Shown piece by piece: positions 1,541-42,429 of a stretch of DNA of 64,000 nt. The stretch spans positions 47,815 to 111,814 of the forward strand of contig JAGUYK010000025.1 in NCBI GenBank assembly GCA_020061355.1. Reading direction: 5' to 3'. Origin of the DNA: Ignavibacteriales bacterium. Lineage in GTDB: Bacteria; Bacteroidota; Ignavibacteria; Ignavibacteriales; Melioribacteraceae. A model generated the notes under the pieces. The model saw only the letters and a program-made list of their open reading frames with translations, was not told the origin of the DNA and did not search any database. The position numbers and the translations under genes are program-made. Each line of letters begins with the position of its first letter. Position 1 is the first letter of the stretch.

Positions 1541-1664
1541 ATTTATTTAAAACTTTTTCATTGGCGGAGTCAACAACTACTTATTTTCGGATTCTTAAAA
1601 GATGTTTAAGGAATGATGTTTTTGAAGTGAATAATTCTCATCCTGAATAAGTGTTGAATAAAAT

Positions 1665-1709
1665 CACCTAAAGGATGTAGTCCCTTTTTCATCCCTTTGA
1701 CCGATTGAA
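1665..1709 (+). promoter_or_regulatory. conserved upstream element, copy 1
   Basis: CACCTAAAGGATGTAGTCCCTTTTTCATCCCTTTGACCGATTGAA, 65 nt upstream of ATG 1774. Perfect direct repeat TCCCTTT-TTCA-TCCCTTT. Ends in the -35-like TTGAAT. Confidence 0.8.
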
Positions 1710-1773
1710 TTACACCATACCTTCTTCATATCTTCTTTCAGATTTAAGAAACAAATATCTAGAAGGGATTCTT

Positions 1774-3039
1774 ATGAATATTGATACAATTAATTCAACA
1801 AGTGTATTGAGAAGATGTCTGCGCTTCATAGTATTGATGTTGGTAGTTATTTTGATGTTGTCTTCCGTCGCGTATTCTCAACCATATACTAACCCTACAA
1901 CGGTTGACTTAAAAACTGCTGCCAATTTTAGAATTCTGGCTGGAAGCGCGGTTACAATTAACGCCGGCTGTACAGTTACCGGGGATGTTGGGGTGAGCCC
2001 GGGTACTGGGATGACCGTAGCCGGAATAGTGAATGGAAATATTCATACAACGGATGATGTCGCAAGTACAGCCCAAAGCGATTTAACTGCAGCTTATACC
2101 GACGCCGCTCAACGAACAGCTGATGCCACGTTGGACGTAGAACTTGGTGGAAAAACCTTAGGATGTGGAGTTTATAATTCTGGAACTTTTACGATAAACG
2201 GAGTGCTCACACTAAGTGGTACGGCTAGTGATATTTTCATCTTCCAGTCAGCTGCCACACTTATCACGGGAACGACATGCATTGTGACCCTACTTGGCGG
2301 TGCCGTGTGGTCCAACGTCTTTTGGCAAGTCGGCAGTTCAGCAACTATTGAAGGAGACTTCAAGGGAACTATCCTCGCTTTAACAGCTATTACGCAAAAT
2401 GCCGGTGCATCATCTGTTTTAACCGGTAGAGCATTGGCGCGGAATGGTGCTGTCACAGTAAGTGGCGCTGAGGTATTGCCGGTGGAACTGACCTCTTTTA
2501 CAGCAGAGTTAAAAAACAATTCGGTAGAATTATATTGGACCACAGCCACAGAAATAAACAACTATGGATTCAATGTAGAATTGAAAATTGAGAATGGAGA
2601 ATGGAACAAGATTGGATTTGTTCAAGGACATGGTAACAGCAATTCACCAAAAGAATATTCATTTACAGATTCACCTTTTGGTGGTACGAAATTCAAATAT
2701 CGTCTAAAACAAATAGATTTTGATGGAGCTTATGAGTATTCTGATGAAATTGAAGTCAACCTAAATCCGCCATCAAAACTTACTCTTGTTCAAAATTATC
2801 CAAATCCATTCAATCCAACAACAATCATTTCATTTGAAATTCCTGTGAAATCAAATGTTGTAATTAAAGTTTATAATGTGATTGGAAGCGAGATTGCAGA
2901 TTTACTGAACGAAGAAAAACTTCCGGGTAGACATCAAGTTGAATTTAATGCGTCGTATTTGCCATCGGGAATTTATTTCTACTCTATCAATGCGGGTGAA
3001 CTCAAACCAATTATGAAAAAGATGATTCTTTTGAAATAA
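1774..3039 (+). CDS. DUF3494 (ice-binding-like fold) secreted protein with T9SS C-terminal sorting domain
   Basis: Start moved to ATG 1774 (MNIDT..., signal peptide ending SSVAYSQ) because TTG 1705 lies inside the conserved element. DUF3494 hallmarks: LKTAANFRILAGSAVT, GDVGVSPGT, TAAYTDAA, DIFIFQ, NVFWQVGSSATI, TGRALARNGAVTV. C-terminal NYPNPFNPTT...GIYFY...KKMILLK is a type-A T9SS CTD. Confidence 0.85.
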   Translation: MNIDTINSTSVLRRCLRFIVLMLVVILMLSSVAYSQPYTNPTTVDLKTAANFRILAGSAVTINAGCTVTGDVGVSPGTGMTVAGIVNGNIHTTDDVASTAQSDLTAAYTDAAQRTADATLDVELGGKTLGCGVYNSGTFTINGVLTLSGTASDIFIFQSAATLITGTTCIVTLLGGAVWSNVFWQVGSSATIEGDFKGTILALTAITQNAGASSVLTGRALARNGAVTVSGAEVLPVELTSFTAELKNNSVELYWTTATEINNYGFNVELKIENGEWNKIGFVQGHGNSNSPKEYSFTDSPFGGTKFKYRLKQIDFDGAYEYSDEIEVNLNPPSKLTLVQNYPNPFNPTTIISFEIPVKSNVVIKVYNVIGSEIADLLNEEKLPGRHQVEFNASYLPSGIYFYSINAGELKPIMKKMILLK

Positions 3040-3895: not shown

Positions 3896-4010
3896 TTAAT
3901 TAATGTGTTAAGAAAAACTTTGACCAGCAGACATTTCCTTCAAATAGAGGCGATAAACAAATTTTTCTTGACAGACACATGGATCCCAATCAGAATACCG
4001 CGGTTAAATT

Positions 4011-4055
4011 CACCTAAAGGATGTAGTCCGTTTTTCATCCCTTTGACCGATTGAA
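4011..4055 (+). promoter_or_regulatory. conserved upstream element, copy 2
   Basis: CACCTAAAGGATGTAGTCCGTTTTTCATCCCTTTGACCGATTGAA. TTGAAC 4051-4056, 17-nt spacer, TATCAT 4074-4079. 114 nt upstream of ATG 4169. Confidence 0.8.
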
Positions 4056-4168
4056 CAATCCTGAATTCCTTCATATCATATTATGGCAATCATATAGCCG
4101 GATCGTGAAATATTTTAAAGTTACTTTGGAAATATGAAATAATTCATTTAAAACAAAGTATAAATAAA

Positions 4169-5734
4169 ATGAAAATTGCATATGCCTTAATTTTTTTGAT
4201 TTTATACTCAACATTTCATGTGGCACAATTTAAACCTACAGTTGAGATAAAAATCTTTCTGGATCAGAATAGATGGCTAAGCAGGCAATTGTCAGTAAAG
4301 GAAATTAATCGTTACTCCGATTTAATTCCTAATAAAATTAAAACATCTTCCTCCTACAATTTTGAAACCTCATCACCGGACACAATGAAATACAACATGT
4401 ATGGTGATTTACGGAACGACAACCCATTTTACAATCCAAAATCTCCGTGGTGGATGGTTGTTTTTAAAGTAACTACGTCCAATCTCTCAACCTTTTTGAT
4501 TGACAGGTATATCTTTAATTATGATTTCTCCACAGTTGGATTTAATTCATGGAAACATAACTTACAAACGGGATGGGAATGGGATGTAGACAGGTTTGGT
4601 ATGAATTATTTTTTTCATCCTTTTTCAGGATCAATGTATTACAACGGAGCGCGTACAAACGGATATAATTTCTTTGAATCTATTCCTTTCACATTTTTGG
4701 GTAGTTTAGAGTGGGAGTATTTCGGAGAAAATACACTCCCATCGTATAATGATATAATCAATACTCCGGTCAACGGCATTTTCCTTGGAGAGATATTTTA
4801 CCGGTTGGGCTCAAATATTCTTGATGATCGCACGACCGGTGCGGATAGATTATTCCGTGAACTGGCTGTTGCAATTCTTTCGCCTACAAGGTTTCTTAGC
4901 AGACTTTTAAGCGGGGATATCTCGAGATCAGTCCCTGAGGAAGTATATCAGAAAGAACCGCTTAATGTAACTTTATCTGCCGGGTATCATAAGGTTAATG
5001 AAGGAACAAAAATTGAGAAAGGAACGCATAGTGCTAATTTCAACATTCATCTCGATTACGGCAATCCGTTTGAAAAAAGGTCTCGCAAACCTTATGACTA
5101 TTTTAAAATTAGGACAGATTTTGATTTCGGAGTGGGAAGGAAAATTATTAATACTGTAACCGGCTACGGAATGATATTTGGCAGTAACATTCAAACCGGT
5201 GATCTGGAAATGTTAGCCGGATTTTTTCAACACATGAATTTTTTTGATAATAAAACTTTCGAATTGGGTACCATTGCATTTGGTCCCGGAATTATTTCCA
5301 AGCTGCCGATGAGCAAAGGTTCAAGTCTATATACTAATCTTCATATTAGTTTAGTGCCATTCGCCGGACTCAGTGGTCGATTCGGTCCAGACAATTCTCA
5401 GGTAAGAGATTATAATTACGGGGGCGGTGCGGAAGCGAAGCTTCAGAGTACTTTAAATCTTGGAAAATGGGTAAGCCTTACATTTATTGGTTACTACTGG
5501 TGGTTTCATACCTTTGTTGGAGATGCCGGGAATAATTACGTTGCTTTGATCAGACCGAGAATTGCATTTAATCTTTTTAATAATGTAAGCATCGGTTTTG
5601 AGCATATGGTTTATTACAGCGATAGATATCCTCGTGATTTTCCAAGTGTTCATTCTGTAAGAACCGAACAGAAAATTTTTCTTCAATTATTTATTGAACA
5701 ATTCAAATTCAAGAGATTATATGATGACTTTTAA
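4169..5734 (+). CDS. DUF3943-like secreted/outer-membrane protein
   Basis: Signal-like N-terminus. WEWDVDRFGMNYFFHPFSGSMYYNGARTNGY resembles the DUF3943 core W.D.D.F..N...HP..G..Y...AR. Assigned from memory of the family, not from a search. Confidence 0.5.
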   Translation: MKIAYALIFLILYSTFHVAQFKPTVEIKIFLDQNRWLSRQLSVKEINRYSDLIPNKIKTSSSYNFETSSPDTMKYNMYGDLRNDNPFYNPKSPWWMVVFKVTTSNLSTFLIDRYIFNYDFSTVGFNSWKHNLQTGWEWDVDRFGMNYFFHPFSGSMYYNGARTNGYNFFESIPFTFLGSLEWEYFGENTLPSYNDIINTPVNGIFLGEIFYRLGSNILDDRTTGADRLFRELAVAILSPTRFLSRLLSGDISRSVPEEVYQKEPLNVTLSAGYHKVNEGTKIEKGTHSANFNIHLDYGNPFEKRSRKPYDYFKIRTDFDFGVGRKIINTVTGYGMIFGSNIQTGDLEMLAGFFQHMNFFDNKTFELGTIAFGPGIISKLPMSKGSSLYTNLHISLVPFAGLSGRFGPDNSQVRDYNYGGGAEAKLQSTLNLGKWVSLTFIGYYWWFHTFVGDAGNNYVALIRPRIAFNLFNNVSIGFEHMVYYSDRYPRDFPSVHSVRTEQKIFLQLFIEQFKFKRLYDDF

Positions 5735-8899: not shown

Positions 8900-9577
8900 A
8901 TGAAGAAAATACTGATACTGCTTATTGAAGATAATAGACTTCTTCGTGATGGTATAGCGACGATGCTCAAGAAAGAGTCTGATATGCATGTTGTTGCTAC
9001 GGTTGGTAATGGCGAAAACATTCTTCTGATGATTGATAAAAACAAGCCGGATATATTACTTCTCGATCTCGGTTTAAGAAGTCAAAACAGTCTACAAATA
9101 GTAAAATTAACAAAGCAGAATTTTCCGGAAACTAAAATAATAGTAATGGATCTTGTACCGCTCCAGGCAGATGTTCTTGAATTTGTGCAGGCGGGAGTTT
9201 CAGGATTCATACTTAAAGATGCAAACGTTGCGGAATTTTATAAAACTATCCGATCAGTTTACAATGGCGAACAGATTTTACCTCCGCATTTAACCGGTTC
9301 GCTTTTTTCTCAAATTGTTGATTATGCAGTCAATGGATTTAAACCGTCTATAGTCGCAGAATCGGTTCGCATGACAAAACGCGAAAGACAGGTAATTGAA
9401 TTAATAGCAGATGGTTCTACAAATAAAGAAATTGCACAAAAACTTCACCTTTCGACCTACACCGTTAAAAGCCACGTTCATAACATACTCGAAAAATTAA
9501 CGTTAAATACACGAGTGCAAATTGCTAAACATGCTCACCTCTCAGATTCTTATAAAACTGATTTAGACACTACCTAA
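8900..9577 (+). CDS. NarL/FixJ-type response regulator (REC + LuxR HTH), paralog 1
   Basis: REC domain (E10-D11, phospho-acceptor D56 in LLLDLGL, K106 in GFILKD). C-terminal LuxR HTH: LTKRERQVIELIADGSTNKEIAQKLHLSTYTVKSHVHNILEKL. Confidence 0.9.
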   Translation: MKKILILLIEDNRLLRDGIATMLKKESDMHVVATVGNGENILLMIDKNKPDILLLDLGLRSQNSLQIVKLTKQNFPETKIIVMDLVPLQADVLEFVQAGVSGFILKDANVAEFYKTIRSVYNGEQILPPHLTGSLFSQIVDYAVNGFKPSIVAESVRMTKRERQVIELIADGSTNKEIAQKLHLSTYTVKSHVHNILEKLTLNTRVQIAKHAHLSDSYKTDLDTT

Positions 9578-9608
9578 TTAATTAACCAACAATAGACTGT
9601 CGTTTACC

Positions 9609-9653
9609 CGTCCAAAAGATGTAGTTCCTTTTTCATCCCTTTGACCGATTGAA
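9609..9653 (+). promoter_or_regulatory. conserved upstream element, copy 3
   Basis: CGTCCAAAAGATGTAGTTCCTTTTTCATCCCTTTGACCGATTGAA, starting 32 nt after the paralog 1 regulator stop codon. TTGAAT 9649-9654, 17-nt spacer, GATAAT 9672-9677. 99 nt upstream of ATG 9752. Confidence 0.85.
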
Positions 9654-9751
9654 TATCTCTTCATAACTGGCGATAATGGAGCCGTAATAAAAAATCTCTT
9701 ATCAAATAAGGGACGGATTTTTTATAAAGTAATAACCGATGGAGGTTCAAG

Positions 9752-10138
9752 ATGACGAATGAAGCAAAAGGAATGGGAAAAGGTCTGTTGATTGGAATTT
9801 TTACCGGCGCTGCTGTCGGATCAATCATTGCACTTCTCTATGCTCCTAAATCCGGTAAAAAGTTGCGCGAGGAAATAAAAACCAAATCACAGGATTTTAC
9901 CGAGGATGCCGAAAAGTATATTTCGAATGCTAAAAGGAAAGCGTCACATTTGATCGAAGATGTAAAAAAAAAGTTCGAATCTTTGGTTACTGAAGCTGAG
10001 GATAATGTAGATGCTATTCTGGATGAATCCGAAAAGGTTCTTAAAAACGCAAAAGACAAAGTTGAAGATTATGTCGAATCCGGTAAAGTAAGTTTAAGAA
10101 AAAAAGCAACCTCGTTAAATTCGCATAGGCGTGAATAA
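9752..10138 (+). CDS. YtxH-domain (general-stress-type) protein
   Basis: N-terminal GLLIGIFTGAAVGSIIALLYAPKSGKKLREEIK is the YtxH signature, followed by a charged helical region. SD GGAGG lies 8 nt upstream. Confidence 0.85.
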   Translation: MTNEAKGMGKGLLIGIFTGAAVGSIIALLYAPKSGKKLREEIKTKSQDFTEDAEKYISNAKRKASHLIEDVKKKFESLVTEAEDNVDAILDESEKVLKNAKDKVEDYVESGKVSLRKKATSLNSHRRE

Positions 10139-10173
10139 AATAGATATATAATTGAAAAGGAAGATTGAATAGA

Positions 10174-10554
10174 ATGACTTTAATTGATGTTTTTGTGATA
10201 GTCTTAATCCTTACGGCTTTCTCACTCTCTATTTTTGTTATTGTATTTTTAAAAAGAATTTACATGCAAGCAGTAACGGTTCAAAAAGATATTCACCGGC
10301 TTGTTGAAAATACAATCCCCGTTATGAGTAATTTAAAAGAGGTTACTGAACGTGCAAACAGGATAGTGACGGGAGTTGAGGGATACTATAATGAAGCTGA
10401 TTGCTTGATTAAAAATGTGCGTGAACGAATTTCAATCCTAACTTCTAATAGAAGATTTCGTTCTGTCGAGCGCCCCGTCAAGTACATAGTCAATAATATA
10501 AGGGCATTGGCAAGCGGCACTTCTGCTTTCTTGAATTCATATAAACATAAGTAA
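10174..10554 (+). CDS. DUF948-like membrane-anchored protein
   Basis: Single N-terminal TM helix then a helical region. This is the usual size and architecture of DUF948 proteins, which often sit next to YtxH genes. ATG 10174 preferred over TTG 10165. Confidence 0.5.
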   Translation: MTLIDVFVIVLILTAFSLSIFVIVFLKRIYMQAVTVQKDIHRLVENTIPVMSNLKEVTERANRIVTGVEGYYNEADCLIKNVRERISILTSNRRFRSVERPVKYIVNNIRALASGTSAFLNSYKHK

Positions 10555-10816
10555 TTTTTGTAATAAGACTTCTAATCACGGTGCGTATCAAAATATTGTA
10601 TCCAAATAGTATGTCTCATATTTTGGGATCGCGTTATTCTTATGCATTCAAATTCCTCATCTTTATCTCTCAAAGTAAAAGCTACTTTCATAACATCCCT
10701 GGATAATTAATATTAAATATTCGCAAGAATATTGCAAAGCACGTGCATCTTTCTAATTCTTTTAAACTGCTATCGATACTTATTTATTAATTGACGAATA
10801 ATTATTTATCGTTAAC

Positions 10817-10860
10817 CTACCCAAAAGAAGTAGTTCCTTTTTCATCCCTTCGATTCATTT
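10817..10860 (+). promoter_or_regulatory. conserved upstream element, copy 4 (3' part divergent)
   Basis: CTACCCAAAAGAAGTAGTTCCTTTTTCATCCCTTCGATTCATTT. Followed by TTTACA-N17-TACCTT, which is homologous to the region after copy 9. 141 nt upstream of ATG 11001. Confidence 0.7.
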
Positions 10861-11000
10861 ACACATTCATAATATCTACTTACCTTATTATGGAATTAAT
10901 ATCGGTCACTATTTCAATAACAAGTAGAGATTAATATGAACAAAATTGCAAGAGCAATTATTCGAACAGAAAATCTTTAATAAACTAAAAGGAGATTCAC

Positions 11001-12092
11001 ATGAAAACCTATACAAAAGATCCAACAAATGTATTAAGTAGATTTAAGCGCTTACTCGGTGCTATGCTTATTATTGCTTTGATGATGCCTGCCATAGCCA
11101 TCTCTCAATCGTCACCGTCAAGAGTGAATCTTGGAACGGCTGGGGATTTCGTAATTCTATCCAAAACAGGAATCTCAACAACGGGAGCTTCTCAAATTAC
11201 CGGAGATATTGGCGTTAGTCCTGCTGCAGCAACATACTTAACCGGATTTGGATTAATCATGGATGCCTCAGGTACGTACTCCACATCATCATTAATTACC
11301 GGTAAAGCATATGCAGCCGATTATACTTCCCCTACACCAACTAAAATGACTACAGCTGTGGGCGATATGGAAACCGCTTACACCGACGCGGCAGGACGTA
11401 CAAATCCTAATTTCACTGAACTGTATAGTGGAGATATTACAGGCAAAACCCTGACTCCCGGTCTTTACAAGTGGGGTACCGGAATACTAATTTCTGCAGC
11501 CGGTGTTACAATCTCTGGCACTTCAAGCGATATCTGGATTTTCCAGATTGCACAAAATCTGACCGTAGATAACGGTGCTATTGTAACATTAAGCGGCGGT
11601 GCTCAAGCTTCCAACATTTTCTGGCAAGTTGCCGGACAGGTTAATCTTGGAACATCTGCTGCCATGAAAGGAATTATTTTGTGTCAGACTGCGATTGCGA
11701 TGAATACCGGAGCAACACTCGACGGCAGGGCACTGGCGCAGACCGCAGTTACTTTAAACGCTAATGCTGTTTCTAAACCTGCAATTGCGACCTCCGTTAA
11801 GAATACTATTGTACCTCAAGCATTCGCACTATTCCAGAACTACCCTAATCCATTCAATCCATCAACCACGATTCAATACAATCTTAGTAAAGCTGCGAAT
11901 GTTTCTTTAAAGGTCTATAATGTACTTGGTAATGAAGTTGCCACACTCGTGAGAAGTAATCAGGAAGCAGGCAGCTATAGTGTACCTTTTGGCAATAGTA
12001 GAGAAACATTAGATCTTTCAAGCGGTGTATATTTCTATCGTCTTGAAGCCGGATCCTATGTCGCCACAAAGAAGTTCATTTTAATGAAGTAG
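11001..12092 (+). CDS. DUF3494 (ice-binding-like fold) secreted protein with T9SS C-terminal sorting domain
   Basis: LGTAGDFVILSKTGIS, GDIGVSPAA, ETAYTDAAGR, DIWIFQIAQ, NIFWQVAGQV, DGRALAQTAVTL. C-terminal NYPNPFNPSTT...GVYFYRLEAG...KKFILMK. SD AAGGAG upstream. Confidence 0.85.
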   Translation: MKTYTKDPTNVLSRFKRLLGAMLIIALMMPAIAISQSSPSRVNLGTAGDFVILSKTGISTTGASQITGDIGVSPAAATYLTGFGLIMDASGTYSTSSLITGKAYAADYTSPTPTKMTTAVGDMETAYTDAAGRTNPNFTELYSGDITGKTLTPGLYKWGTGILISAAGVTISGTSSDIWIFQIAQNLTVDNGAIVTLSGGAQASNIFWQVAGQVNLGTSAAMKGIILCQTAIAMNTGATLDGRALAQTAVTLNANAVSKPAIATSVKNTIVPQAFALFQNYPNPFNPSTTIQYNLSKAANVSLKVYNVLGNEVATLVRSNQEAGSYSVPFGNSRETLDLSSGVYFYRLEAGSYVATKKFILMK

Positions 12093-12160: not shown

Positions 12161-12246
12161 CAGAAATAATCAAGTTCTATAAATAATTGTAAGCATTAAA
12201 TAAAAAGGATGATAGAGATTTAATAATTAACTAACGAATAATTGCC

Positions 12247-12290
12247 CACCCCAAAAGATGTAATCCCTTTTTCATCCTTTTGGACTATGG
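12247..12290 (+). promoter_or_regulatory. conserved upstream element, copy 5 (3' part divergent)
   Basis: CACCCCAAAAGATGTAATCCCTTTTTCATCCTTTTGGACTATGG, 188 nt upstream of ATG 12478. No clean -35/-10 found downstream. Confidence 0.65.
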
Positions 12291-12477
12291 TTTTATTATT
12301 AAGATGTTTTTACAATTCGATTGGATAAAAAAGACAAAACAGAAAAAGTTTCTCTAAGGGGTTGTGCTATTTTTTAACAGAGGAATGTTGGTATCAATCA
12401 ATATTAGGCATGACAGAACTTAATAAAAGTAGAAAAAAAATAAAGGAATATTTGTATCATCTCTGGAGAAAATACTT

Positions 12478-14199
12478 ATGAAAAAAAACATATTAAACTT
12501 TCAGCGAAAAATACTTCCTAAGGCTCCCACAAGTATTCAAGGATTGGACGAAATAACAGGCGGTGGATTACCGAAAGGGAGACCAACTCTTGTATGCGGA
12601 GGTGCAGGCTGCGGAAAAACCCTATTTGCAATGGAGTTCCTCGTTCGCGGTGCAACTCTGTACAATGAACCCGGCGTATATATTTCGTTCGAAGAAACTG
12701 AAAAAGAACTGACAGCTAACGTTGCTTCGTTGGGATTCGATTTAAATGACCTTGTAAAACGAAAAAAGATTTGGCTTGAACACGTTCATATTGAACGCGG
12801 TGAAATTGAAAAGAGCGGGGAATATGACTTGAAAGGATTGTTTGTCCGTATCCATCACGCAATTGAAAACATAAAGGCAAAGCGTTTAGTACTGGATACT
12901 ATTGAATCACTTTTTTCAGCTCTTCCGAACTCAACTATTGTTCGCACAGAACTGCGGCGGTTATTCGGCTGGCTGAAAAAGAAAGGTGTTACGGCAATAA
13001 TCACCGGAGAACGGGGGAATGAAACTTTAACACGTCAGGGTTTGGAAGAGTATGTTTCCGATTGTGTTATACTTTTGGATCATCGAGTGAGCGATCAATC
13101 ATCCATACGACGATTACGAATTGTTAAATACCGTGGGTCAATGCACGGAACAAATGAATATCCTTTCTTAATTGATGAGGATGGTTTTTCTATATTACCT
13201 GTAACCTCGCTTGGCTTGAATCATATTTCATCTAAAGAAAGAATTTCCACCGGCATTCCGCGTCTTGATACTATGCTTTCCGGAAAAGGTTACTATCGTG
13301 GCAGTACAGTGCTTGTTTCAGGTACCGCTGGTACAGGTAAAACAAGTCTTGCAGCGCAATTTGTTCAAGCTGCATGTAAACGTGGTGAACGTGTTCTTTA
13401 TTTTGCTTTCGAAGAATCCCCGAGTCAATTTATGCGCAACATGGCTTCGATCGGAATTCATCTGGAACCGTGGGTGAAAAAAGGATTACTCCACTTTCAC
13501 GCAACACGACCAACACTGCATGGATTGGAACATCATTTAACAACTTCTATTAAATTAATTAATGAAGTTAAACCGCAAATAGTTGTTCTCGATCCTATTG
13601 ATGCATTCGTGATGGGAGGGAACCAGACTGAAGTTAAAATAATGCTGCTGCGCCTTGTGGACTTTTTAAAGATGAGAAATATCACTGCATTCTTTGCAAG
13701 CTTAACTAACTCAGGAGAGAACCAGGAGCTAACGGATATGTCAATATCCTCACTAATAGATACATGGCTGCTATTGCGTGATATCGAATTTGGCGGTGAA
13801 CGAAACAGGGGATTGTATATTCTTAAATCGCGGGGTATGTCGCATTCCAATCAAATCCGTGAGTTTATACTTACCGACAGTGGAATTGATCTGCTTGATG
13901 TCTATGTTGGTCCCGAAGGCGTTCTTACCGGCTCGGCTCGATTGGCGCAAGAAGCGAAAAACTATGAAGAACAATTGCTGCATCAACAAGACATTGAACG
14001 GAAACAACTCGAATTAGAACTTAAACGTGCGGCTGTAGAAGCTCATATTGCAGTATTACAGTCTGAATTCAAATCAGAAGAATCAGATACACTCAAGATT
14101 ATCGAGATGGAAAAAGCAAAAACCGAAAGGGTTGTACAGGTTCAGAAAAAAATGGCGGAGAGTAGAAAAGCGGATAAACTCGTGAAAAAACCGGCATAA
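12478..14199 (+). CDS. kaiC: KaiC-family double RecA-like ATPase with C-terminal coiled-coil extension
   Basis: Two KaiC domains. Walker A motifs GGAGCGKT and GTAGTGKT. Catalytic EE pairs YISFEE and YFAFEE. SISSLIDTWLLL aligns with the S. elongatus KaiC phospho-site segment HISTITDTIILL. About 80 extra C-terminal residues are heptad-like and charged (EAKNYEEQLLHQQDIERKQLELELKRAAVEAHIAVLQSEF...). Confidence 0.85.
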   Translation: MKKNILNFQRKILPKAPTSIQGLDEITGGGLPKGRPTLVCGGAGCGKTLFAMEFLVRGATLYNEPGVYISFEETEKELTANVASLGFDLNDLVKRKKIWLEHVHIERGEIEKSGEYDLKGLFVRIHHAIENIKAKRLVLDTIESLFSALPNSTIVRTELRRLFGWLKKKGVTAIITGERGNETLTRQGLEEYVSDCVILLDHRVSDQSSIRRLRIVKYRGSMHGTNEYPFLIDEDGFSILPVTSLGLNHISSKERISTGIPRLDTMLSGKGYYRGSTVLVSGTAGTGKTSLAAQFVQAACKRGERVLYFAFEESPSQFMRNMASIGIHLEPWVKKGLLHFHATRPTLHGLEHHLTTSIKLINEVKPQIVVLDPIDAFVMGGNQTEVKIMLLRLVDFLKMRNITAFFASLTNSGENQELTDMSISSLIDTWLLLRDIEFGGERNRGLYILKSRGMSHSNQIREFILTDSGIDLLDVYVGPEGVLTGSARLAQEAKNYEEQLLHQQDIERKQLELELKRAAVEAHIAVLQSEFKSEESDTLKIIEMEKAKTERVVQVQKKMAESRKADKLVKKPA

Positions 14200-16779: not shown

Positions 16780-16814
16780 ATTATGAAAATTTTTCATATC
16801 ACCTGGAAAGAGAG

Positions 16815-16857
16815 CTCCAAATGATGTAGTCCCTTTTTCATCCTTTCGGTCTATTTC
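16815..16857 (+). promoter_or_regulatory. conserved upstream element, copy 6 (3' part divergent)
   Basis: CTCCAAATGATGTAGTCCCTTTTTCATCCTTTCGGTCTATTTC, 99 nt upstream of ATG 16956. Confidence 0.65.
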
Positions 16858-16955
16858 TTAGGCGCAAGATATTAAATAACTTCTTACAGGTTAATTGCCT
16901 TAATGGTTATCAAATAATTAACCAATATATAATCAATTAAATAAAAGGAGCAGTA

Positions 16956-17384
16956 ATGAAAACACGAATAATTTTTGGATCAATCCTTATTATGTTTCTC
17001 TTTACCCTCCCTGCTATTGCAGGTGGTAAAGACCAAATTCAAAAATATTTCAGCGATGCAGCAAAGAAAGTAAACGCTGCTGAAAACGCATCGGAGAAAC
17101 GGGATATTCTAGACAAATCATTTAAGAACATGTTCAATGCACTGGAAAAAGTTCAAAACTCCGGTTTCGTCTCACAAGACGAAAGCAAGGGTATTGATCT
17201 TTTCAAAGCTACAATGAAAGAAAGGCAAGATGAGTTAATTGGCGCCAATGGCTACGAACGAGTAGCGGATTCTCAACTAAATGACTTCGCGAATTACGTA
17301 GTGCAGGATATGGAGCAGGCATCGATAACCATCAGTCTACTCGCGCTGGTTTTGATTATTATTCTACTTGTATATTTATTGTAA
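16956..17384 (+). CDS. hypothetical secreted protein with C-terminal TM anchor
   Basis: Signal peptide MKTRIIFGSILIMFLFTLPAIAG, C-terminal hydrophobic ITISLLALVLIIILLVYLL. SD AAGGAG upstream. Confidence 0.6.
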   Translation: MKTRIIFGSILIMFLFTLPAIAGGKDQIQKYFSDAAKKVNAAENASEKRDILDKSFKNMFNALEKVQNSGFVSQDESKGIDLFKATMKERQDELIGANGYERVADSQLNDFANYVVQDMEQASITISLLALVLIIILLVYLL

Positions 17385-18836: not shown

Positions 18837-21779
18837 ATGAAGAAGAGAGCTATTCCAAAAAAAGATCCAATCAAAAAAAAGAAAAGTAGAGATGAATTAT
18901 CATCTTCCGGTAATTCATTTTATGTAGTCGGTATCGGCGCATCTGCAGGCGGTTTAGAAGCACTCGAAAGATTTTTCAGAAATATGCCTGAGAATACAGG
19001 CATGGCTTTTATCGTAGTGTCGCATTTAGATCCCAATCATGTAAGCATTATGCCCGAGCTGGTTCAAAAATCTACCAAGATGAAATTATTTCAAGCTCAA
19101 GACGGAATGAAGGTAGAACCGAATCATGTTTATGTAGCTCCGGCTAACCGGGATTTAGCAATTCTTCACGGAACAATTCAATTAATAGAACCTATTGAAC
19201 CGCATGGATTCCGCCTTCCGATTGATTTTTTCTTCAATTCCCTTTCTTCAGATTTAGGTGAAAAAGCTATTTGTATTATTCTTTCCGGTATGGCTTCCGA
19301 TGGTACTTCGGGATTAAAAGCAGTAAAGAGTGAATTAGGAATGGTAATGGTTCAGGATCCGAAATCGGCAAAGTTTGACGGAATGCCAAGCAGCGCAATT
19401 AAAACCGGGTTAGCAGATTACATCCTTTCACCTGAAGAGATGCCGGAACAGTTGATTAAATATACCACCCAAAAAATAAGGGGTTTTTTATTAGACAAGG
19501 CAATTGACGACGGTAAAATTCCGGATACGTTTCAAAAAATTTTCATTCTGCTTAGAACTCATACCGGACACGATTTTTCGCTTTACAAACAAAATACAAT
19601 TTACCGGCGAGTAGAAAGAAGAATGAATGTTTCTCAATTGGATAGTATTCCAAATTATATAAGGATGCTTCAGGAAAACCCCGCAGAAATTGATAACTTG
19701 TTTAGAGAACTTTTAATTGGCGTAACAAATTTTTTCAGAGATCCCGAATCCTTCGAGAAATTGAAAAAGGTGTTATTAGAGTTGGTAAAAAGTAAACCTG
19801 ATGACGGTCTGATCAGAATTTGGGTGCCCGGATGCTCTACCGGCGAAGAGGCATACTCCATTGCAATTATATTACGGGAATGTATAGATGAAACGAAGAA
19901 AAATTTAAACGTTCAAATATTTGCCACAGATATTGATAGTAGTGCTATTGAGAAAGCCCGAAATGGTTCATTCTCGGGAATTGAATCCGATGTTGGTATA
20001 GAACGTTTGAAACGTTTCTTTACTTCAGAAGGGAATATTTTTCATATTCGAAAAGAAATAAGAGAGATGCTGGTCTTTGCAACGCAAAGTATTATTAAAG
20101 ATGCTCCATTTACCAGACTCGATTTGGTCTCATGCCGCAATCTTCTTATTTATCTTAATTCTGAATTACAGAAAAAATTAATTCCTATTTTCCATTATAG
20201 TCTATTACCCTCAGGAATACTGGTTCTCGGTTCATCGGAAACTATAAGCGGGTTTGTAGATCTGTTTTCAATGGCAGATAAAAAATGGAAAATTTACAAA
20301 AGAAGAGATTCTGTTTTTTCTGTACAACCGTTAATAGAATTTCCTGTTTTACGTCCAATAGCAAAACCTAATGAGCCAATAATGAAAAAGAACGAAGTTA
20401 AAAACATTCCCCATTTAGCAGAAAAAATAATTCTGCAAAGCTACTCACCAAATTGTGTGATAATAACTCAAAGTGGAGATATATTGTATATCCATGGTAG
20501 AACCGGCAAATTCCTTGAGCTTACACACGGTGAAGCAAAGATGAACATTTTTGAAATGGCACGAGAAGGATTAAGACAGGAACTTCCTACATTGATTAGA
20601 AAAGTTTCAACAAGTAAGAAATCATTAACCGTAGAAGGAATAAAGGTAAAAAATAACGGCAGCAGCCAATCAATAAACCTTACTGTTAAATATGTTAAAG
20701 AGCCGCTTGAAATGTCGGGTTCTATGTTGATCATTTTTGAGGAAGTTGTAGAACAAAAGAAATTGCCGACTTCTAAAAAAATCCATTATGAAAAGAAATC
20801 GGAAAGAGTTATTAAAGAACTTGAACACGAGCTAAAATCTACTAAAGCGAATTTAAGATCAACTATTGAAGAATTAGAAACTTCCAATGAAGAACTTAAA
20901 TCGACTAACGAAGAGATGCAGTCGACAAATGAGGAGATGCAAAGTTCAAATGAAGAATTAGAAACTTCCAAAGAGGAATTACAGTCCCTGAATGAGGAAT
21001 TGATTACTGTAAACACCGAGCTGCAGAATAAGAACGATGAATTATCAACTATCAATAATGATATGAAAAATCTGCTTGACAGCACTGATATCCCGACCAT
21101 CTTTCTTGATAATAATTTATGTATAAAAAGATTTACGCATCATGCATCAAAGGTTATAAACCTAATTGCTTCCGACGTTGGAAGACCAATAAACCATATA
21201 GCAACAAATCTGAAATATGAAAAGTTTATTGAGGATGCCAGGGAAGTTTTAAGAACACTTGTTTATAAAGAAATCGAGCTGCAAACCAAAGAAGATCTCT
21301 GGTTTCAAATGAGAATATTGCCTTACCGGACAATAAGCAATCTTATCGACGGTGTTGTAATAACATTTTTAGATATAAACAATTTAAAAATTGCTTATGG
21401 AAAAATTCATAAGCTGAATCAAGAGGTTCAACTAGCCCGTGAGTATTCAAATAATATTGTTGATACCGTGAGAGATTCGCTTCTTATTCTTGATAAGAAT
21501 TTGAAAGTCCTTTCTGCTAACCGTTCTTTTTATAAAATGTTTAATACAGTCAGCGAAAAAACCGTCGGCAAGTTTATTTACGAGCTTGACGATAATAATT
21601 GGGATATCCCTGAACTGCGTAAACTCCTTGAGGAAATAATTCCTAAATCAACTTTTTTTGAAGATTATGAACTCGAATACAATTTTAAAAAGACCGGTAG
21701 AAAAAAATTATTATTGAATGCCCGCGAGATATTTCAGGGAGATAAAGAATCCCAACTAATACTTCTTGCAATCCAGTAG
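18837..21779 (+). CDS. CheB-methylesterase/CheR-methyltransferase fusion protein with coiled coil and PAS domains
   Basis: CheB-type domain ([14 protein letters not shown]...), CheR SAM-methyltransferase motif ([17 protein letters not shown]), and heptad coiled coil [44 protein letters not shown]. Two PAS-like modules follow. Confidence 0.85.
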
Positions 21780-21965
21780 CAAAGTATAAAATAAAGAGGT
21801 CATCACTTAAATATGTAATTTGATCTTTGAACCAGTTAAGGTATTTTAATGGAAACCCCATGCTTCAGCATGGGGGTGAAATCCAGACAATCAAAATGGG
21901 CTTTCCCCAAGGAATCCTTTGGATAGCCCGGAAAAAATAGAGATTATTATAAGAGGTGCCGAAAA

Positions 21966-23252
21966 ATGAATCGTACAAAAAAGGAATCAGGAAAAATCGT
22001 TATTAAAAAAGCGAAGAAAAAAATCGAGCCGAAACCTAAAAAGACCTCTGTTGAAAAAATTGAGGATGTTAAAAAATTAGTGCATTTACTCCAGGTGCAT
22101 CAGATTGAACTGGAACATCAAAACGAAGAACTTAGAATTGCCCAGGAAGAGTTGGAAGTATCGAGGAATAAATACGTAAACCTATTTGATTTTTCCCCGA
22201 TCCCTTATTTTACATTAGACCCGATTGGGAAAATAATGGAAGTGAATTTAAGTGCCAGTAAAATGTTCGGAATTGATCGAAAAATATTAATTGGTAAGCG
22301 TTTTAGTTCTTTTATCCCGATGGACGAAAAAGATATTTTTAATTCTTTTATTCAAACTGTTTTTACATCTCCGGTAAAACACTCTTGCGAATTAAAAGTG
22401 ATGAGCAAAGATAAACGAGTTTTCAGTGTTCTACTGGAAGGCTTAAAGTTAGACGACACACTGGAATCAGATCCTAAATGCCAGGTTGCTTTAATCGATT
22501 TGACCGAATACAAAAAGATCGAGGTTTCGTTAAAAGAGTCCAACAAAGAACTTAAAAAACTAAATAACACTAAAGACAGATTCTTCGCAATCATTGCGCA
22601 TGATTTAAGAAGCCCTTTTCAATCTTTTTTAAGCACTTCGGAATTGCTTTCTACGGAAATTGAAACTTTATCGCAGGAAGATATATTATTATTCAGCCGG
22701 GGACTGCATGATAATTTAACAAAATTCTATAGACTCCTGGAAAATTTGCTCAATTGGTCAATGATGCAAAAAGACATGCTTGAGTATAAATCGACAAGTA
22801 TTAACCTTTATGATGCAGTGAATAAAATAATTGAAATATCTAATCAATGCGCTTTGAAGAAAAATATTTCTTTGTCCAACAATGTGGTAAAAGGAACCTT
22901 CGTTATTGCAGATGTTGATATGCTTCGCTCGGTTATTCAAAACCTTATATTAAATGCAATCAAATTCACTCAAATGGAAGGACAGGTAATTGTATCCTCT
23001 GTTGAAAAGGATGGTTTTGTTGAAGTATCAGTTCAGGATACCGGGATAGGAATTGATCCGGAAAAATCTTCCAAACTTTTCAACTTTGAAACAATATTTA
23101 CAACCAACGGAACTGCCGGAGAGAAAGGGACCGGACTTGGATTACCTCTTTGCAAAGAATTTATTGAAAGAAACGATGGTACTATTCGGGTCGAAAGTGA
23201 ATTAGGAAAAGGATCAACATTTACATTCACTTTACGCAAAGCAATTTCATAA
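21966..23252 (+). CDS. PAS-domain sensor histidine kinase
   Basis: N-terminal coiled coil HQIELEHQNEELRIAQEELE plus PAS. H-box FFAIIAHDLRSP. ATPase N and G boxes (NLILNAIKFT, DTGIGI, GTGLGLPLCKEF). Confidence 0.9.
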   Translation: MNRTKKESGKIVIKKAKKKIEPKPKKTSVEKIEDVKKLVHLLQVHQIELEHQNEELRIAQEELEVSRNKYVNLFDFSPIPYFTLDPIGKIMEVNLSASKMFGIDRKILIGKRFSSFIPMDEKDIFNSFIQTVFTSPVKHSCELKVMSKDKRVFSVLLEGLKLDDTLESDPKCQVALIDLTEYKKIEVSLKESNKELKKLNNTKDRFFAIIAHDLRSPFQSFLSTSELLSTEIETLSQEDILLFSRGLHDNLTKFYRLLENLLNWSMMQKDMLEYKSTSINLYDAVNKIIEISNQCALKKNISLSNNVVKGTFVIADVDMLRSVIQNLILNAIKFTQMEGQVIVSSVEKDGFVEVSVQDTGIGIDPEKSSKLFNFETIFTTNGTAGEKGTGLGLPLCKEFIERNDGTIRVESELGKGSTFTFTLRKAIS

Positions 23253-23290
23253 ATAAAATTGAAATATTTTTTCTAACAATTGTAAGCACA

Positions 23291-23983
23291 ATGAAAAAAA
23301 TTAAAATACTGCTTATTGAAGATAATAGACTGTTGCGTGATGGCATTGCCTCATTATTAAAAAAGCAGCCTGATATGCGGGTCGTTGCAACAATAGGGGA
23401 TGGAAAAAATATTCGAGATATAATTGAGAAGCACAAACCGAATATAGTGCTTCTCGATCTCGGTTTAAAAAGTCAGAACAGCTTGCATGTTGTAAAATTA
23501 ATTAAGGAAATATTTCAAGAAGCCAAAATTATTGTGATGGATCTTGTTCCTGTTCAGGCAGATGTTTTCGAATTTGTTCAGGCGGGTGTATCAGGATTCA
23601 TACTTAAAGATGCAAATGTTTCAGAATTATATCAAACTATCCGGAAAGTAAATCAGGGTGCTCGAATTTTACCTCATCAATTAACCGGTTCGCTTTTTTC
23701 TCAAATCGTTAAAAACGCTGTTGTTAGATCTAAACCTTCCATAATCGATAAATCAGTACGGTTGACAAAACGTGAATTGCAGGTAATCGAATTAGTTTCA
23801 GATGGTCTGACCAATAAAGAAATTGCCCAAAAACTTCGTCTATCACAGTACACAGTAAAAAGCCACGTACATAACATACTTGAAAAATTAGCACTCACTA
23901 CGCGTGTACAGATTGCAAAGTACGCTCATATCTCCGACACTTACAAAGTTACCAAGGATAGCACTTCTTTAATAAGTAAATAA
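23291..23983 (+). CDS. NarL/FixJ-type response regulator (REC + LuxR HTH), paralog 2
   Basis: Aligns end to end with paralog 1, with most positions identical by eye (MKKIKILLIEDNRLLRDGIA..., VLLDLGL, GFILKD, LTKRELQVIELVSDGLTNKEIAQKLRLSQYTVKSHVHNILEKL). Lies directly after the histidine kinase gene. Confidence 0.9.
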   Translation: MKKIKILLIEDNRLLRDGIASLLKKQPDMRVVATIGDGKNIRDIIEKHKPNIVLLDLGLKSQNSLHVVKLIKEIFQEAKIIVMDLVPVQADVFEFVQAGVSGFILKDANVSELYQTIRKVNQGARILPHQLTGSLFSQIVKNAVVRSKPSIIDKSVRLTKRELQVIELVSDGLTNKEIAQKLRLSQYTVKSHVHNILEKLALTTRVQIAKYAHISDTYKVTKDSTSLISK

Positions 23984-23997
23984 TTTTACAAAAACTT

Positions 23998-24044
23998 CCT
24001 ACCCAAAAGATGTAGTTCCTTTTTCATCCTTTCGCCCGATTGAA
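23998..24044 (+). promoter_or_regulatory. conserved upstream element, copy 7
   Basis: CCTACCCAAAAGATGTAGTTCCTTTTTCATCCTTTCGCCCGATTGAA, starting 15 nt after the paralog 2 regulator stop codon. TTGAAC 24040-24045, 17-nt spacer, TACTAT 24063-24068. 109 nt upstream of ATG 24153. Confidence 0.85.
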
Positions 24045-24152
24045 CTTAGATGTAATCATCACTACTATTAATCGGATTCAAAAAGAGGTTTACTGTTTTT
24101 TTGAATAACGGAAATTTAATATCAAGTCACAACAAATTAATAGGAGGATTCA

Positions 24153-38514: not shown

Positions 38515-38666
38515 TCGGAATATTTAATTATAAAAATTAATAGTCGGTTAGAATTTTATAGGGAATTGCATCTCTAAACTGATGGTCAAAGAAAGTGAGT
38601 GATCGATTCATAATATAGGAGATTCATTATTACAGGATTGGATCTTTACTGTAAAGAAGCAATTTG

Positions 38667-38710
38667 TCACCCAAAAGAAGTAGTCCCATTTTCATTCCTT
38701 TGACCGATGG
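38667..38710 (+). promoter_or_regulatory. conserved upstream element, copy 10 (most divergent)
   Basis: TCACCCAAAAGAAGTAGTCCCATTTTCATTCCTTTGACCGATGG, 139 nt upstream of ATG 38849. Confidence 0.6.
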
Positions 38711-38848
38711 TTTTGTCTTGAGACTTATTGTAGTTTGTTGTGCATTTGAAAATGTGAGTGTAAAGAATTTATTAACGCATGGACAACTGTAAATACTAAA
38801 ATATATTTAACAGATTTGAGTGATTTAATTAAAAAGGAGTGTTTTACA

Positions 38849-39695: not shown

Positions 39696-40193
39696 ATGAA
39701 AAAGTATTTTCTGTTCATTATAGTTTTAGGTTTTATGATGTTCTTATCAAAACCGATTATGGCGCAGGATCACGGATTTGGTTTGGGAATTGTTTTAGGA
39801 GAGCCAACCGGATTGAGCGCAAAACTCTGGACTTCAAAAGTAAATGCTTTTGATTTTGGGCTTGGTGTTGGTCTTGGCGGTGATCGTATCAGTTACAAAG
39901 GCAACTATAATAATTCCGGGCGAATCCATTTTCATATGGATTATTTATGGCATTCATTCAACGCAATAAGTTCAAGCGAAAATTTTCCTCTTTATTACGG
40001 AATAGGCGGCAGGTACAATAGCGGCGGCGGATATGAAGGATCGCTTGGTGTTAGAGGTGTTTTAGGTATAGCATGGTTTCCTCATGCAACTCCTATTGAT
40101 GTATTCTTTGAGCTCGTACCGGTTTTTCAGGTTACCCCGCTTACAGGATTAGGTATTGATGCAGGGCTGGGCATAAGATATTTCTTTCAGTAA
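39696..40193 (+). CDS. small outer-membrane beta-barrel protein (paralog of 35975-36469)
   Basis: Signal peptide. FGLGIVLGEPTGLSAKLWTS...GGDRI...GRIHFHMDYLWH...LYYGIGGR...GIRYFFQ is co-linear with the 35975 product. SD AAGGAG upstream. Confidence 0.65.
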   Translation: MKKYFLFIIVLGFMMFLSKPIMAQDHGFGLGIVLGEPTGLSAKLWTSKVNAFDFGLGVGLGGDRISYKGNYNNSGRIHFHMDYLWHSFNAISSSENFPLYYGIGGRYNSGGGYEGSLGVRGVLGIAWFPHATPIDVFFELVPVFQVTPLTGLGIDAGLGIRYFFQ

Positions 40194-42061: not shown

Positions 42062-42286
42062 AATTCCTCCTTCATGGAAATACAAACCAAAATTATTTTT
42101 GTTGCCAAATCATGAAAACCAATATTGTGCAAGTTGCTTTTACTATTTCCGAGCAACTCTCTACTGTTTAAACCTTTTACTTAACTATTTTTCTCTACAA
42201 TAACGGATGCTTCACTATCTTATTGGCGATCTAATGTTCAATAAATAGCTCAAGTTATAATACGGATTCTGTTCGAATTTTTACTC

Positions 42287-42330
42287 ATTCCAAAGATGTA
42301 GTTCCTTTTTCATCCCTTTGCCCGATTGAA
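42287..42330 (+). promoter_or_regulatory. conserved upstream element, copy 11
   Basis: ATTCCAAAGATGTAGTTCCTTTTTCATCCCTTTGCCCGATTGAA. TTGAAA 42326-42331, 17-nt spacer, GATAAT 42349-42354. 100 nt upstream of ATG 42430. Confidence 0.85.
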
Positions 42331-42429
42331 AACTTCCTTTTAACTGTTGATAATGGACACAGAATAAAAACCAATGATCCTTTAAGGCTGGGAACTGATT
42401 TATTAAGAAATATTCGAGAGGTCCTACTT

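Follow-up and report, generated by a model that had tools for sequence, protein, structure and literature searches.

A long promoter module of fixed geometry and its linked NarL-type response regulators in Ignavibacteriota

The element compared with described regulator-binding sites

The pho-box, bound by PhoB of the OmpR/PhoB family, consists of two 7-bp direct repeats with a 4-bp spacer (11-bp phasing), lies by or at the -35 of sigma-70-type promoters, and heads a multi-operon regulon that includes the gene of the regulator itself. These features recur in the element studied here, a module of about 70 bp that is repeated along a 64,000-nt stretch of an Ignavibacteriales genome (assembly GCA_020061355.1, contig JAGUYK010000025.1, positions 47,815 to 111,814 of the forward strand; hereafter the window, numbered from its first letter). 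One copy, with the repeat TTCCTTT-TTCA-TCCCTTT at 9625-9642 on the plus strand, had been flagged in an original prediction made from the letters alone, and this flagged segment is a single instance of the whole module. However, the module retains a separate -35-like hexamer 6 bp past the repeat, its sequence is unrelated to the CTGTCAT of the pho-box, its conserved block is much longer (48 bp), and the regulators linked to it carry a helix–turn–helix of the NarL/LuxR type and not a winged helix. As its linked regulators are of another type and it keeps a -35 of its own, we do not assign the module to the pho-box class.

Sites for several dimers that reach the -35 are also known from the NarL/FixJ family, at the DevR/DosR dormancy promoters, for DesR at Pdes, for ComA (RE1-RE2-RE3), and for BvgA. 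By analogy, the module may be likened to these in the family of its linked regulators, in a combination of inverted and direct half-sites that covers 40–50 bp and ends at the -35, in the apparent autoregulation of one paralogue, and in clustered stress and dormancy targets that may include a ribosome hibernation factor. It differs from them in that it appears to have neither the classical 7-2-7 arrangement nor a 20-bp palindrome, is conserved almost base by base over 30 bp, keeps an invariant spacing to the -10, and is linked to at least three paralogous regulators that carry Asp at the Thr/Ser switch and whose binding is only predicted. The cyanobacterial HLR1 site of RpaB offers a further parallel, as a direct-repeat response-regulator site at a fixed position in the core promoter that serves a phylum-wide stress regulon, but its regulator is of the OmpR type, its geometry is 8-2-8, its sequence is unrelated, and it activates or represses according to position. 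Finally, the sigma-A(B) promoters of Bacteroidota (TTTG at -33, TAnnTTTG at -7) come from a related superphylum, and a TTG-N20-TAnnTT geometry fits them as well; in the module, however, offsets 53-54 are not TG and the upstream hexamer reads ATTGa.

A literature search returned no paper that contains the core sequence or describes a promoter motif of Ignavibacteria, and a multi-omics paper on Melioribacter does not touch the genes linked to the element. Ignavibacteriota are abundant in sediments, aquifers, and wastewater, and almost all are uncultured; to our knowledge, nothing is known about their transcriptional control. We regard the element as a hitherto undescribed promoter module, longer and more rigid than usual, which delimits a regulon found across the class in a phylum that has been little studied; its mechanism, an activator site joined to a sigma-70-type promoter, appears to be conventional.

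A 48-bp block and a core promoter in fixed register

A degenerate 18-mer for the repeat, TYCCTTTTTCATCCYTTY, matches the window 11 times with up to two mismatches, always on the plus strand, against an expectation of 0.11 from shuffled sequence; 11 copies were reached in none of 100 shuffles. A profile search of the window recovered these 11 copies (E-values 5e-18 to 6e-12) and no further credible hit. We aligned the copies without gaps and counted offsets from the first T of the repeat. The conserved block extends from offset -18 to +29 (48 bp), with the repeat as its centre and the consensus CTCAnCCAAAAGATGTAGTYCCTTTTTCATCCYTTTGnnCGATTGAa (offsets about -18 to +29), and holds approximately 58.6 bits over offsets -20 to +29. 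When the matrix is compared with itself, the strongest internal direct repeat is a 7-mer from offset 0 to 11, with a lag of 11 and a lag of 10 almost equal to it, so the 11-bp-phased direct repeat reported in the original prediction is real. The strongest inverted repeat pairs GATGTA (-7 to -2) with TTCATC (7 to 12); its arm is only 4-8 bp, with GATG (-7 to -4) and CATC (9 to 12) separated by a 12-bp gap, and it comes in addition to the direct repeats. The two half-sites are therefore real, yet they are a mere part of an almost contiguous block that extends into the -35-like hexamer. Readings of the core on the minus strand, as an ATG-led mini-open reading frame (ORF) or as a GGAAC motif like that of extracytoplasmic function (ECF) sigma factors, were dropped, since conservation stops at -18 and the upstream genes are co-directional.

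Every coordinate and string quoted in that prediction is correct, including the hexamer pairs at 9649/9672, 42326/42349, 4051/4074, and 24040/24063, the perfect TCCCTTT-TTCA-TCCCTTT in copies 1 (1681) and 9 (29967), and the TTTACN-N17-TACCTT common to copies 4 and 9. The observation is not only real but stronger than first stated. It had been held that copies 5, 6, 8, and 10 show no clean -10 and that the promoter model is consequently not universal; in the ungapped register these copies carry TACAAT, TAACTT, CAAATT, and TAGTTT, and a -10 at the 17-nt register fits all 11 copies. Offset +48 is A in 10 of the 11 and offset +52 is T in every one, the exception at +48 being copy 1, which has ATATCT in register and TATCTT one base later. 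The -35-like hexamers of the window are less uniform: six are TTGAAT, TTGAAC, or TTGAAA, two begin TTTAC, and three are weak (e.g. TGGTTT and TTTCTT).

Comparison across genomes extends this picture. A collection holding one genome per species was scanned with the exact 21-mer core GTAGTYCCTTTTTCATCCYTT, and loci were taken as 8-kb blocks. At least 117 stretches, belonging to about 81 species-level assemblies, contain the core; they are almost all labelled Ignavibacteriota and, among those listed, include Ignavibacteriaceae and Melioribacteraceae. The few stretches labelled as other phyla we assume to be misfiled bins. A profile search of 826 kb of the listed loci returned 237 copies, 99 of which have no exact seed match. 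Column counts were made on 234 unique in-register copies and, separately, on 136 exact copies. Among the 234, the columns at the -35-like hexamer are kept as A23 in 233, T24 in 232, T25 in 217, G26 in 191, and A27 in 147, and those at the -10 as T47 in 188, A48 in 209, T51 in 149, and T52 in 226, whereas no column of the spacer between them (30-46) reaches 0.65 bits. A -35-like ATTG(A) and a TAnnTT thus stand at a rigid 17 nt across an unconserved spacer. A variable spacer between conserved hexamers at an invariant distance points to selection on a sigma-70-type promoter and not to shared ancestry alone. Conservation ends at offset -18 on one side and at the -10 on the other, there are no terminal repeats, and the 136 exact copies show no conserved promoter upstream of the block. 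A co-directional downstream ORF begins within 450 nt of 182 of 235 copies; the remainder have no qualifying ORF, partly since loci end there.

The comparison also gives good support to the earlier reading of these promoters as housekeeping-sigma-type, in that the 17-nt spacing is invariant over 234 copies while the spacer drifts. A TTGACA-like -35 of the sigma-70 type is found in the 234 copies as well as in the window, and a TAnnnT hexamer, which sigma-70-type promoters place 16-18 nt past the -35, follows it at exactly 17 nt. A generic sigma-70 consensus scan was uninformative in this AT-rich DNA, with 80 sites against 69 expected (terminator counts likewise equalled those of shuffles), and for this reason the evidence is the fixed register and not the match to a consensus. 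Two other promoter features are absent. Known upstream elements bound by the C-terminal domain of the alpha subunit are A/T-rich, and an UP element would be expected to be so from -59 to -38 with no specific G or C; in the block, C2, C9, C12, C13, and G18 are invariant. Nor do the copies show the sigma-A(B) -7 motif TAnnTTTG, as offsets 53-54 are mostly A or T and G54 occurs in only 31 of 234.

The register also predicts where transcription may begin. With a start at offset +59, the hexamers lie at -35 to -30 and -12 to -7; the start would then fall about 7 nt past the -10, near 9684 for the flagged copy. Purines are enriched at +59 to +61 in both the 136-copy and the 234-copy sets. Among copies with a long ORF downstream, the stretch from +30 to +52 contains no start codon of such an ORF. 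Six ORFs begin with an ATG at +58 to +60, and the nearest start beyond these lies at +68. The six belong to five orthologues of RR3, one of the response regulators described below, whose N-terminus (MKKIRLLLIEDN) is fixed by alignment, and to the gene in locus L010. Their ATG stands 5-7 nt past the -10 (L005:3310-3372, L021:2539-2603, L037:7237-7299, L069:5254-5316, L087:2850-2912, and L010:4623-4686). An ATG at the predicted start site would make the mRNA leaderless if transcription begins where the -10 predicts, which implies leaderless mRNAs for the RR3 orthologues of one subclade. In other RR3 orthologues, the distance from offset 0 to the ATG is 121-196 nt, corresponding to leaders of about 60-140 nt, and the target genes of the window have leaders of 34-155 nt and GGAG-type ribosome-binding sites.

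Linked response regulators and a probable mechanism

Three paralogous NarL/LuxR-type response regulators, RR1, RR2, and RR3, are encoded in the window, RR2 being 73% and RR3 57% identical to RR1 (coordinates in Table 1). Pfam and NCBIfam scans of essentially all ORFs of the window found no other DNA-binding protein and no sigma factor. Across genomes, the 784 ORFs that surround the element include 55 NarL-type response regulators, spread over 37 of the 117 loci, which makes this the largest family; among the recurrent families of the listed loci there is no second transcription-factor family and no sigma family. A receiver and a GerE/LuxR helix–turn–helix, as expected of a NarL/FixJ regulon, are thus present in the regulators linked to the sites. 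The linkage follows two distinct patterns. Of 20 RR3 orthologues, 16 have a copy of the element in their own promoter. None of 24 RR1-type genes has one upstream, but a copy lies 47-77 nt past the stop in 19 of the 24 and within 250 nt in 20, a pattern into which the flagged copy fits. Autoregulation is accordingly suggested for the RR3 orthologues, and not for RR1-type genes or for the RR3 of the window. The regions upstream of RR1-type genes were too heterogeneous for footprinting of a housekeeping promoter consensus. RR2 is the last gene of an apparent operon (18837-23983) behind a CheB-CheR-PAS fusion and a PAS histidine kinase, with no element upstream; the family of histidine kinases and CheB-CheR proteins is the fourth commonest around the element (33 members in 23 loci). 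The closest solved relatives of these response regulators are VraR, NarL, DesR, and DevR.

The original prediction had proposed an activator site occupied by a tandem dimer touching the -35. The first half of this proposal, a regulator site upstream of the promoter, is plausible since response-regulator genes are tightly linked to the element. The second half, a tandem dimer on two half-sites, is too simple for a nearly contiguous block of 48 bp and about 58 bits that contains an inverted arm and reaches into the -35.

We consider it probable that the element is a response-regulator-dependent promoter module, in which the linked NarL-type response regulators act on the block joined to an ordinary -35/-10 promoter. 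The downstream part would be a sigma-70-type core, with ATTGa at -36 to -32, the rigid 17-nt spacer, and TAnnTT at -12 to -7. The upstream part would be the block at about -77 to -30, with TYCCTTT-TTCA-TCCYTTY and the inverted arm AAARGATG. At least one dimer of RR1/RR2/RR3-type proteins would dock on -77 to -36, on a face of the helix set by the 10-11-bp phasing, and would recruit RNA polymerase, or stabilise it, at the -35 hexamer, which is often weak (TGGTTT, TTTCTT). We infer activation in preference to repression, as well as the identity and stoichiometry of the bound protein, and dependence on an activator fits because several copies have weak -35 hexamers. RR1-type proteins, whose gene lacks the element, would provide the primary input, and RR3-type proteins, whose gene carries it, would be an induced target, giving positive feedback or a cascade. 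The output would be a set of envelope, stress, and dormancy genes, namely those for ice-binding-like cargo of the type IX secretion system (T9SS), OmpA-like, YtxH, sll1863-like, Mla, AI-2E, KaiC, HPF, and M48 proteins.

Several points weigh against this mechanism. Head-to-tail 7-4-7 repeats are the hallmark of OmpR/PhoB-type and not of NarL-type regulators; no OmpR/PhoB-type regulator was seen near the element, where only the GerE/LuxR type recurs. About 58 bits over 48 nearly contiguous bp is far beyond the need of one dimer, and the block may be read by several proteins or directly by RNA polymerase. Co-regulation and synteny, rather than binding, could account for the link to response regulators, and the counts given above are not independent, as presence of the element was the criterion by which loci were chosen and many of the loci are orthologous islands. 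The 310-nt region upstream of the RR3 of the window (36469-36780) has no trace of the element, and the same holds for its closest relatives in L017 and L065. Finally, in an alignment of 13 of these response regulators, the position of the receiver Thr/Ser switch of VraR, NarL, and DesR is invariably Asp (in 'VMDLAP'); the 13 retain the phospho-acceptor Asp56 and Lys106, and their receiver signalling may be atypical. As a separate observation, one of the assemblies that contain L017 and L065 (CAYVBQ) holds a second RR3-like gene, which does have the element (L077).

A more elaborate form of the response-regulator mechanism appears possible, though on balance improbable. The block could be a composite, enhanceosome-like platform on which several paralogous, atypical NarL-type regulators bind cooperatively, one of them constitutive and one under the control of the element. 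These regulators would then jointly be the master switch for dormancy and envelope stress throughout the class, and a KaiC homologue, a PAS histidine kinase, and a CheB-CheR methylation module, which would belong to the regulon as well, could gate it.

It is also conceivable, but unlikely, that RNA polymerase reads the block directly, with an alternative or lineage-specific sigma or alpha subunit, so that the copies form an extended class of stress promoters, with a region resembling an upstream element and a lengthened -35 but no separate activator. Unbroken conservation over about -77 to -30, which passes into the -35 and takes in the invariant A23 before TTG, agrees with this, as do the wholly rigid 17-nt spacing to the -10 and a gene set like those of general-stress sigma regulons. 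However, TTGa and TAnnTT are housekeeping-like and do not resemble ECF, sigma-54, sigma-28, or sigma-32 promoters, no sigma-factor gene is present in the window or among the recurrent families near the element, and the block has invariant C/G positions where known upstream elements are A/T-rich.

We regard as quite unlikely a role for the block as an operator at which a repressor or dual regulator, for which the linked response regulators would be candidates, keeps an intrinsically active promoter closed until stress. The core hexamers of several copies (TTGAAT/GATAAT, TTGAAC/TATCAT) are good and might fire alone, and the stress operator of CtsR is a tandem heptad direct repeat, which counts in favour of such a role. 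Yet no part of the block extends past the -35, and sites in such an upstream position usually serve activators; the copies with poor -35 hexamers (TGGTTT, TTTCTT) retain it equally well.

Very little speaks for a transcribed 5' leader RNA made from a promoter further upstream, in which the block would form a hairpin (AAAGGAUG...CAUCCYUUU) or a binding site for a protein or small RNA, and we reject this riboswitch-like reading as highly improbable. An imperfect inverted repeat of 8 nt is present and all copies are oriented as the downstream gene, but Rfam gave no match at gathering thresholds over the whole window or at E<=1 over 9500-11100, and element regions folded no better than shuffles (z-scores +0.48, +1.04, and -1.17). 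The left arm departs from GATG in 80 of the 234 copies with the right arm kept as CATC in 226, so there is no compensatory change, and position -8 (A/G) varies independently of position 14 (C/T) in statistical terms. In addition, the conserved -10 lies downstream of the element, the six genes described above start 5-7 nt past it, and no conserved promoter stands further upstream.

It is hardly credible that the module has spread as a mobile or recently propagated sequence, such as a miniature transposable element or 'mobile promoter', and lacks a dedicated regulator: many near-identical copies do precede unrelated genes, but they have no terminal inverted repeats or target duplications, are oriented strictly with the downstream gene, accompany orthologous genes in about 80 species with no more than 55-90% identity between their proteins, and have diverged in flanks and spacer with the core kept, as under purifying selection.

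The genes behind the element

All 11 copies in the window precede plus-strand genes (Table 1). Their targets encode three ice-binding-like proteins (two with T9SS tails and one of 1507 aa), a DUF3943 protein, YtxH (followed by DUF948), KaiC (followed by MlaE/F/D), a 142-aa envelope protein, DUF4398, DUF4398-OmpA, DUF4397-like, and DUF4382 proteins, and a B12-binding radical SAM enzyme. Across genomes, the families found behind the element are of the same kind: ice-binding/T9SS proteins (23 copies), OmpA-like proteins (19), response regulators (16), sll1863-like stress proteins (12), YtxH (9), AI-2E transporters (8), the 142-aa envelope protein family p142 (8), small outer-membrane proteins (6), MlaE (5), histidine kinases and CheB-CheR proteins (5), KaiC (5), and radical SAM proteins (4). 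M48 and ferritin likewise follow it, and the ribosome hibernation factor HPF recurs in element loci, in the same locus though not necessarily directly behind a copy. The element thus marks a conserved regulon whose members point to the envelope, to stress, and to dormancy. No copy is present in the last 21 kb of the window (42400-64000), which holds glycosyltransferase, GH130, GH3 (with a T9SS tail), and glucoamylase-like genes. This copy-free, glycoside-hydrolase-rich 3' third indicates that the element is specific to the stress/envelope island and is not a general promoter feature. No association of the element with tRNA or tmRNA was found.

Table 1. Copies of the module, their targets, and linked regulatory genes in the 64,000-nt window (repeat starts, offset 0, in brackets)
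Feature	Position	Strand	Details
Copy 1 (1681)	1663..1733	+	TTGAAT-N17-ATATCT, or TATCTT with N18; target ice-binding-like protein, T9SS tail, ATG 1774
Copy 2 (4027)	4009..4079	+	TTGAAC-N17-TATCAT; ahead of DUF3943 protein 4169-5734
Copy 3 (flagged), upstream block	9607..9654	+	offsets -18 to +29
Copy 3, left arm AAAAGATG	9614-9621	+	
Copy 3, direct repeat 1 TTCCTTT	9625-9631	+	followed by spacer TTCA
Copy 3, direct repeat 2 TCCCTTT	9636-9642	+	followed by invariant G at 9643
Copy 3, CGATTGAAT		+	includes -35-like TTGAAT 9649-9654
Copy 3, -10-like GATAAT	9672..9677	+	17 nt past -35-like hexamer; predicted start ~9684
Copy 3, target	start 9752		YtxH-like gene, GGAGG ribosome-binding site ahead
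Copy 4 (10834)	10816..10886	+	TTTACA-N17-TACCTT; ahead of ice-binding-like T9SS protein 11001-12092
Copy 5 (12264)	12246..12316	+	TGGTTT-N17-TACAAT; ahead of KaiC homologue 12478-14199, then MlaE/F/D
Copy 6 (16830)	16812..16882	+	TTTCTT-N17-TAACTT; ahead of 142-aa secreted/membrane protein 16956-17384
Copy 7 (24016)	23998..24068	+	TTGAAC-N17-TACTAT; offset 0 is 33 nt past RR2 stop; targets DUF4398 (24153), DUF4398-OmpA (24536)
Copy 8 (29321)	29303..29373	+	TTGAAA-N17-CAAATT; ahead of 108-aa DUF4397-like protein 29442-29768
Copy 9 (29967)	29949..30019	+	TTTACT-N17-TACCTT; target 1507-aa Big_5 / InlB-repeat / ice-binding-like protein 30067-34590
Copy 10 (38684)	38666..38736	+	core most divergent; TGGTTT-N17-TAGTTT; ahead of DUF4382 protein, ATG 38849
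Copy 11 (42302)	42284..42354	+	TTGAAA-N17-GATAAT; ahead of B12-binding radical SAM protein 42430-43911
RR1	8900..9577	+	NarL/LuxR-type response regulator, candidate regulator; stop 48 nt before offset 0 of copy 3
CheB-CheR-PAS fusion	18837-21779	+	980 aa
PAS histidine kinase	21966-23252	+	
RR2	23291..23983	+	paralogue of RR1; directly upstream of copy 7
RR3	36781..37470	+	paralogue of RR1

Some of these genes and copies merit separate mention. The KaiC homologue directly behind copy 5 is a full-length, double-domain protein (NCBIfam PRK09302, 737 bits against a cut-off of 408); it stands ahead of MlaE/F/D, and no KaiB was noted. The ice-binding-like proteins contain DUF3494 and lie at 1705-3039, 11001-12092, and 30067-34590, all behind the element, and the last of them has nine Big_5 and four InlB-type repeats. 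Two paralogous putative outer-membrane proteins of about 165 aa (35975-36469 and 39696-40193) have no Pfam or NCBIfam match, and their family counts 17 members in 14 loci around the element. Copies 3 and 11, whose targets are unrelated, show an extra likeness across the spacer, the -10, and the first 20 or so transcribed nucleotides (AACTGnnGATAATGGAnnnnGnAATAAAAA; 9643-9705 and 42320-42382); the same variant is found in four other genomes (L011, L017, L074, and L110), and it may represent a second regulatory site or a duplication of the promoter.

An element of about 58 bits that is nearly identical in some 80 species offers a purely sequence-based handle on one complete regulon in this phylum. 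From it, start sites can be predicted with an error of a few bases and candidate regulators named, and it groups proteins of unknown role (ice-binding-like T9SS cargo, DUF3943, DUF4382, DUF4397/4398, and small outer-membrane proteins) with KaiC, HPF, and YtxH, as parts of one co-regulated stress and dormancy programme.

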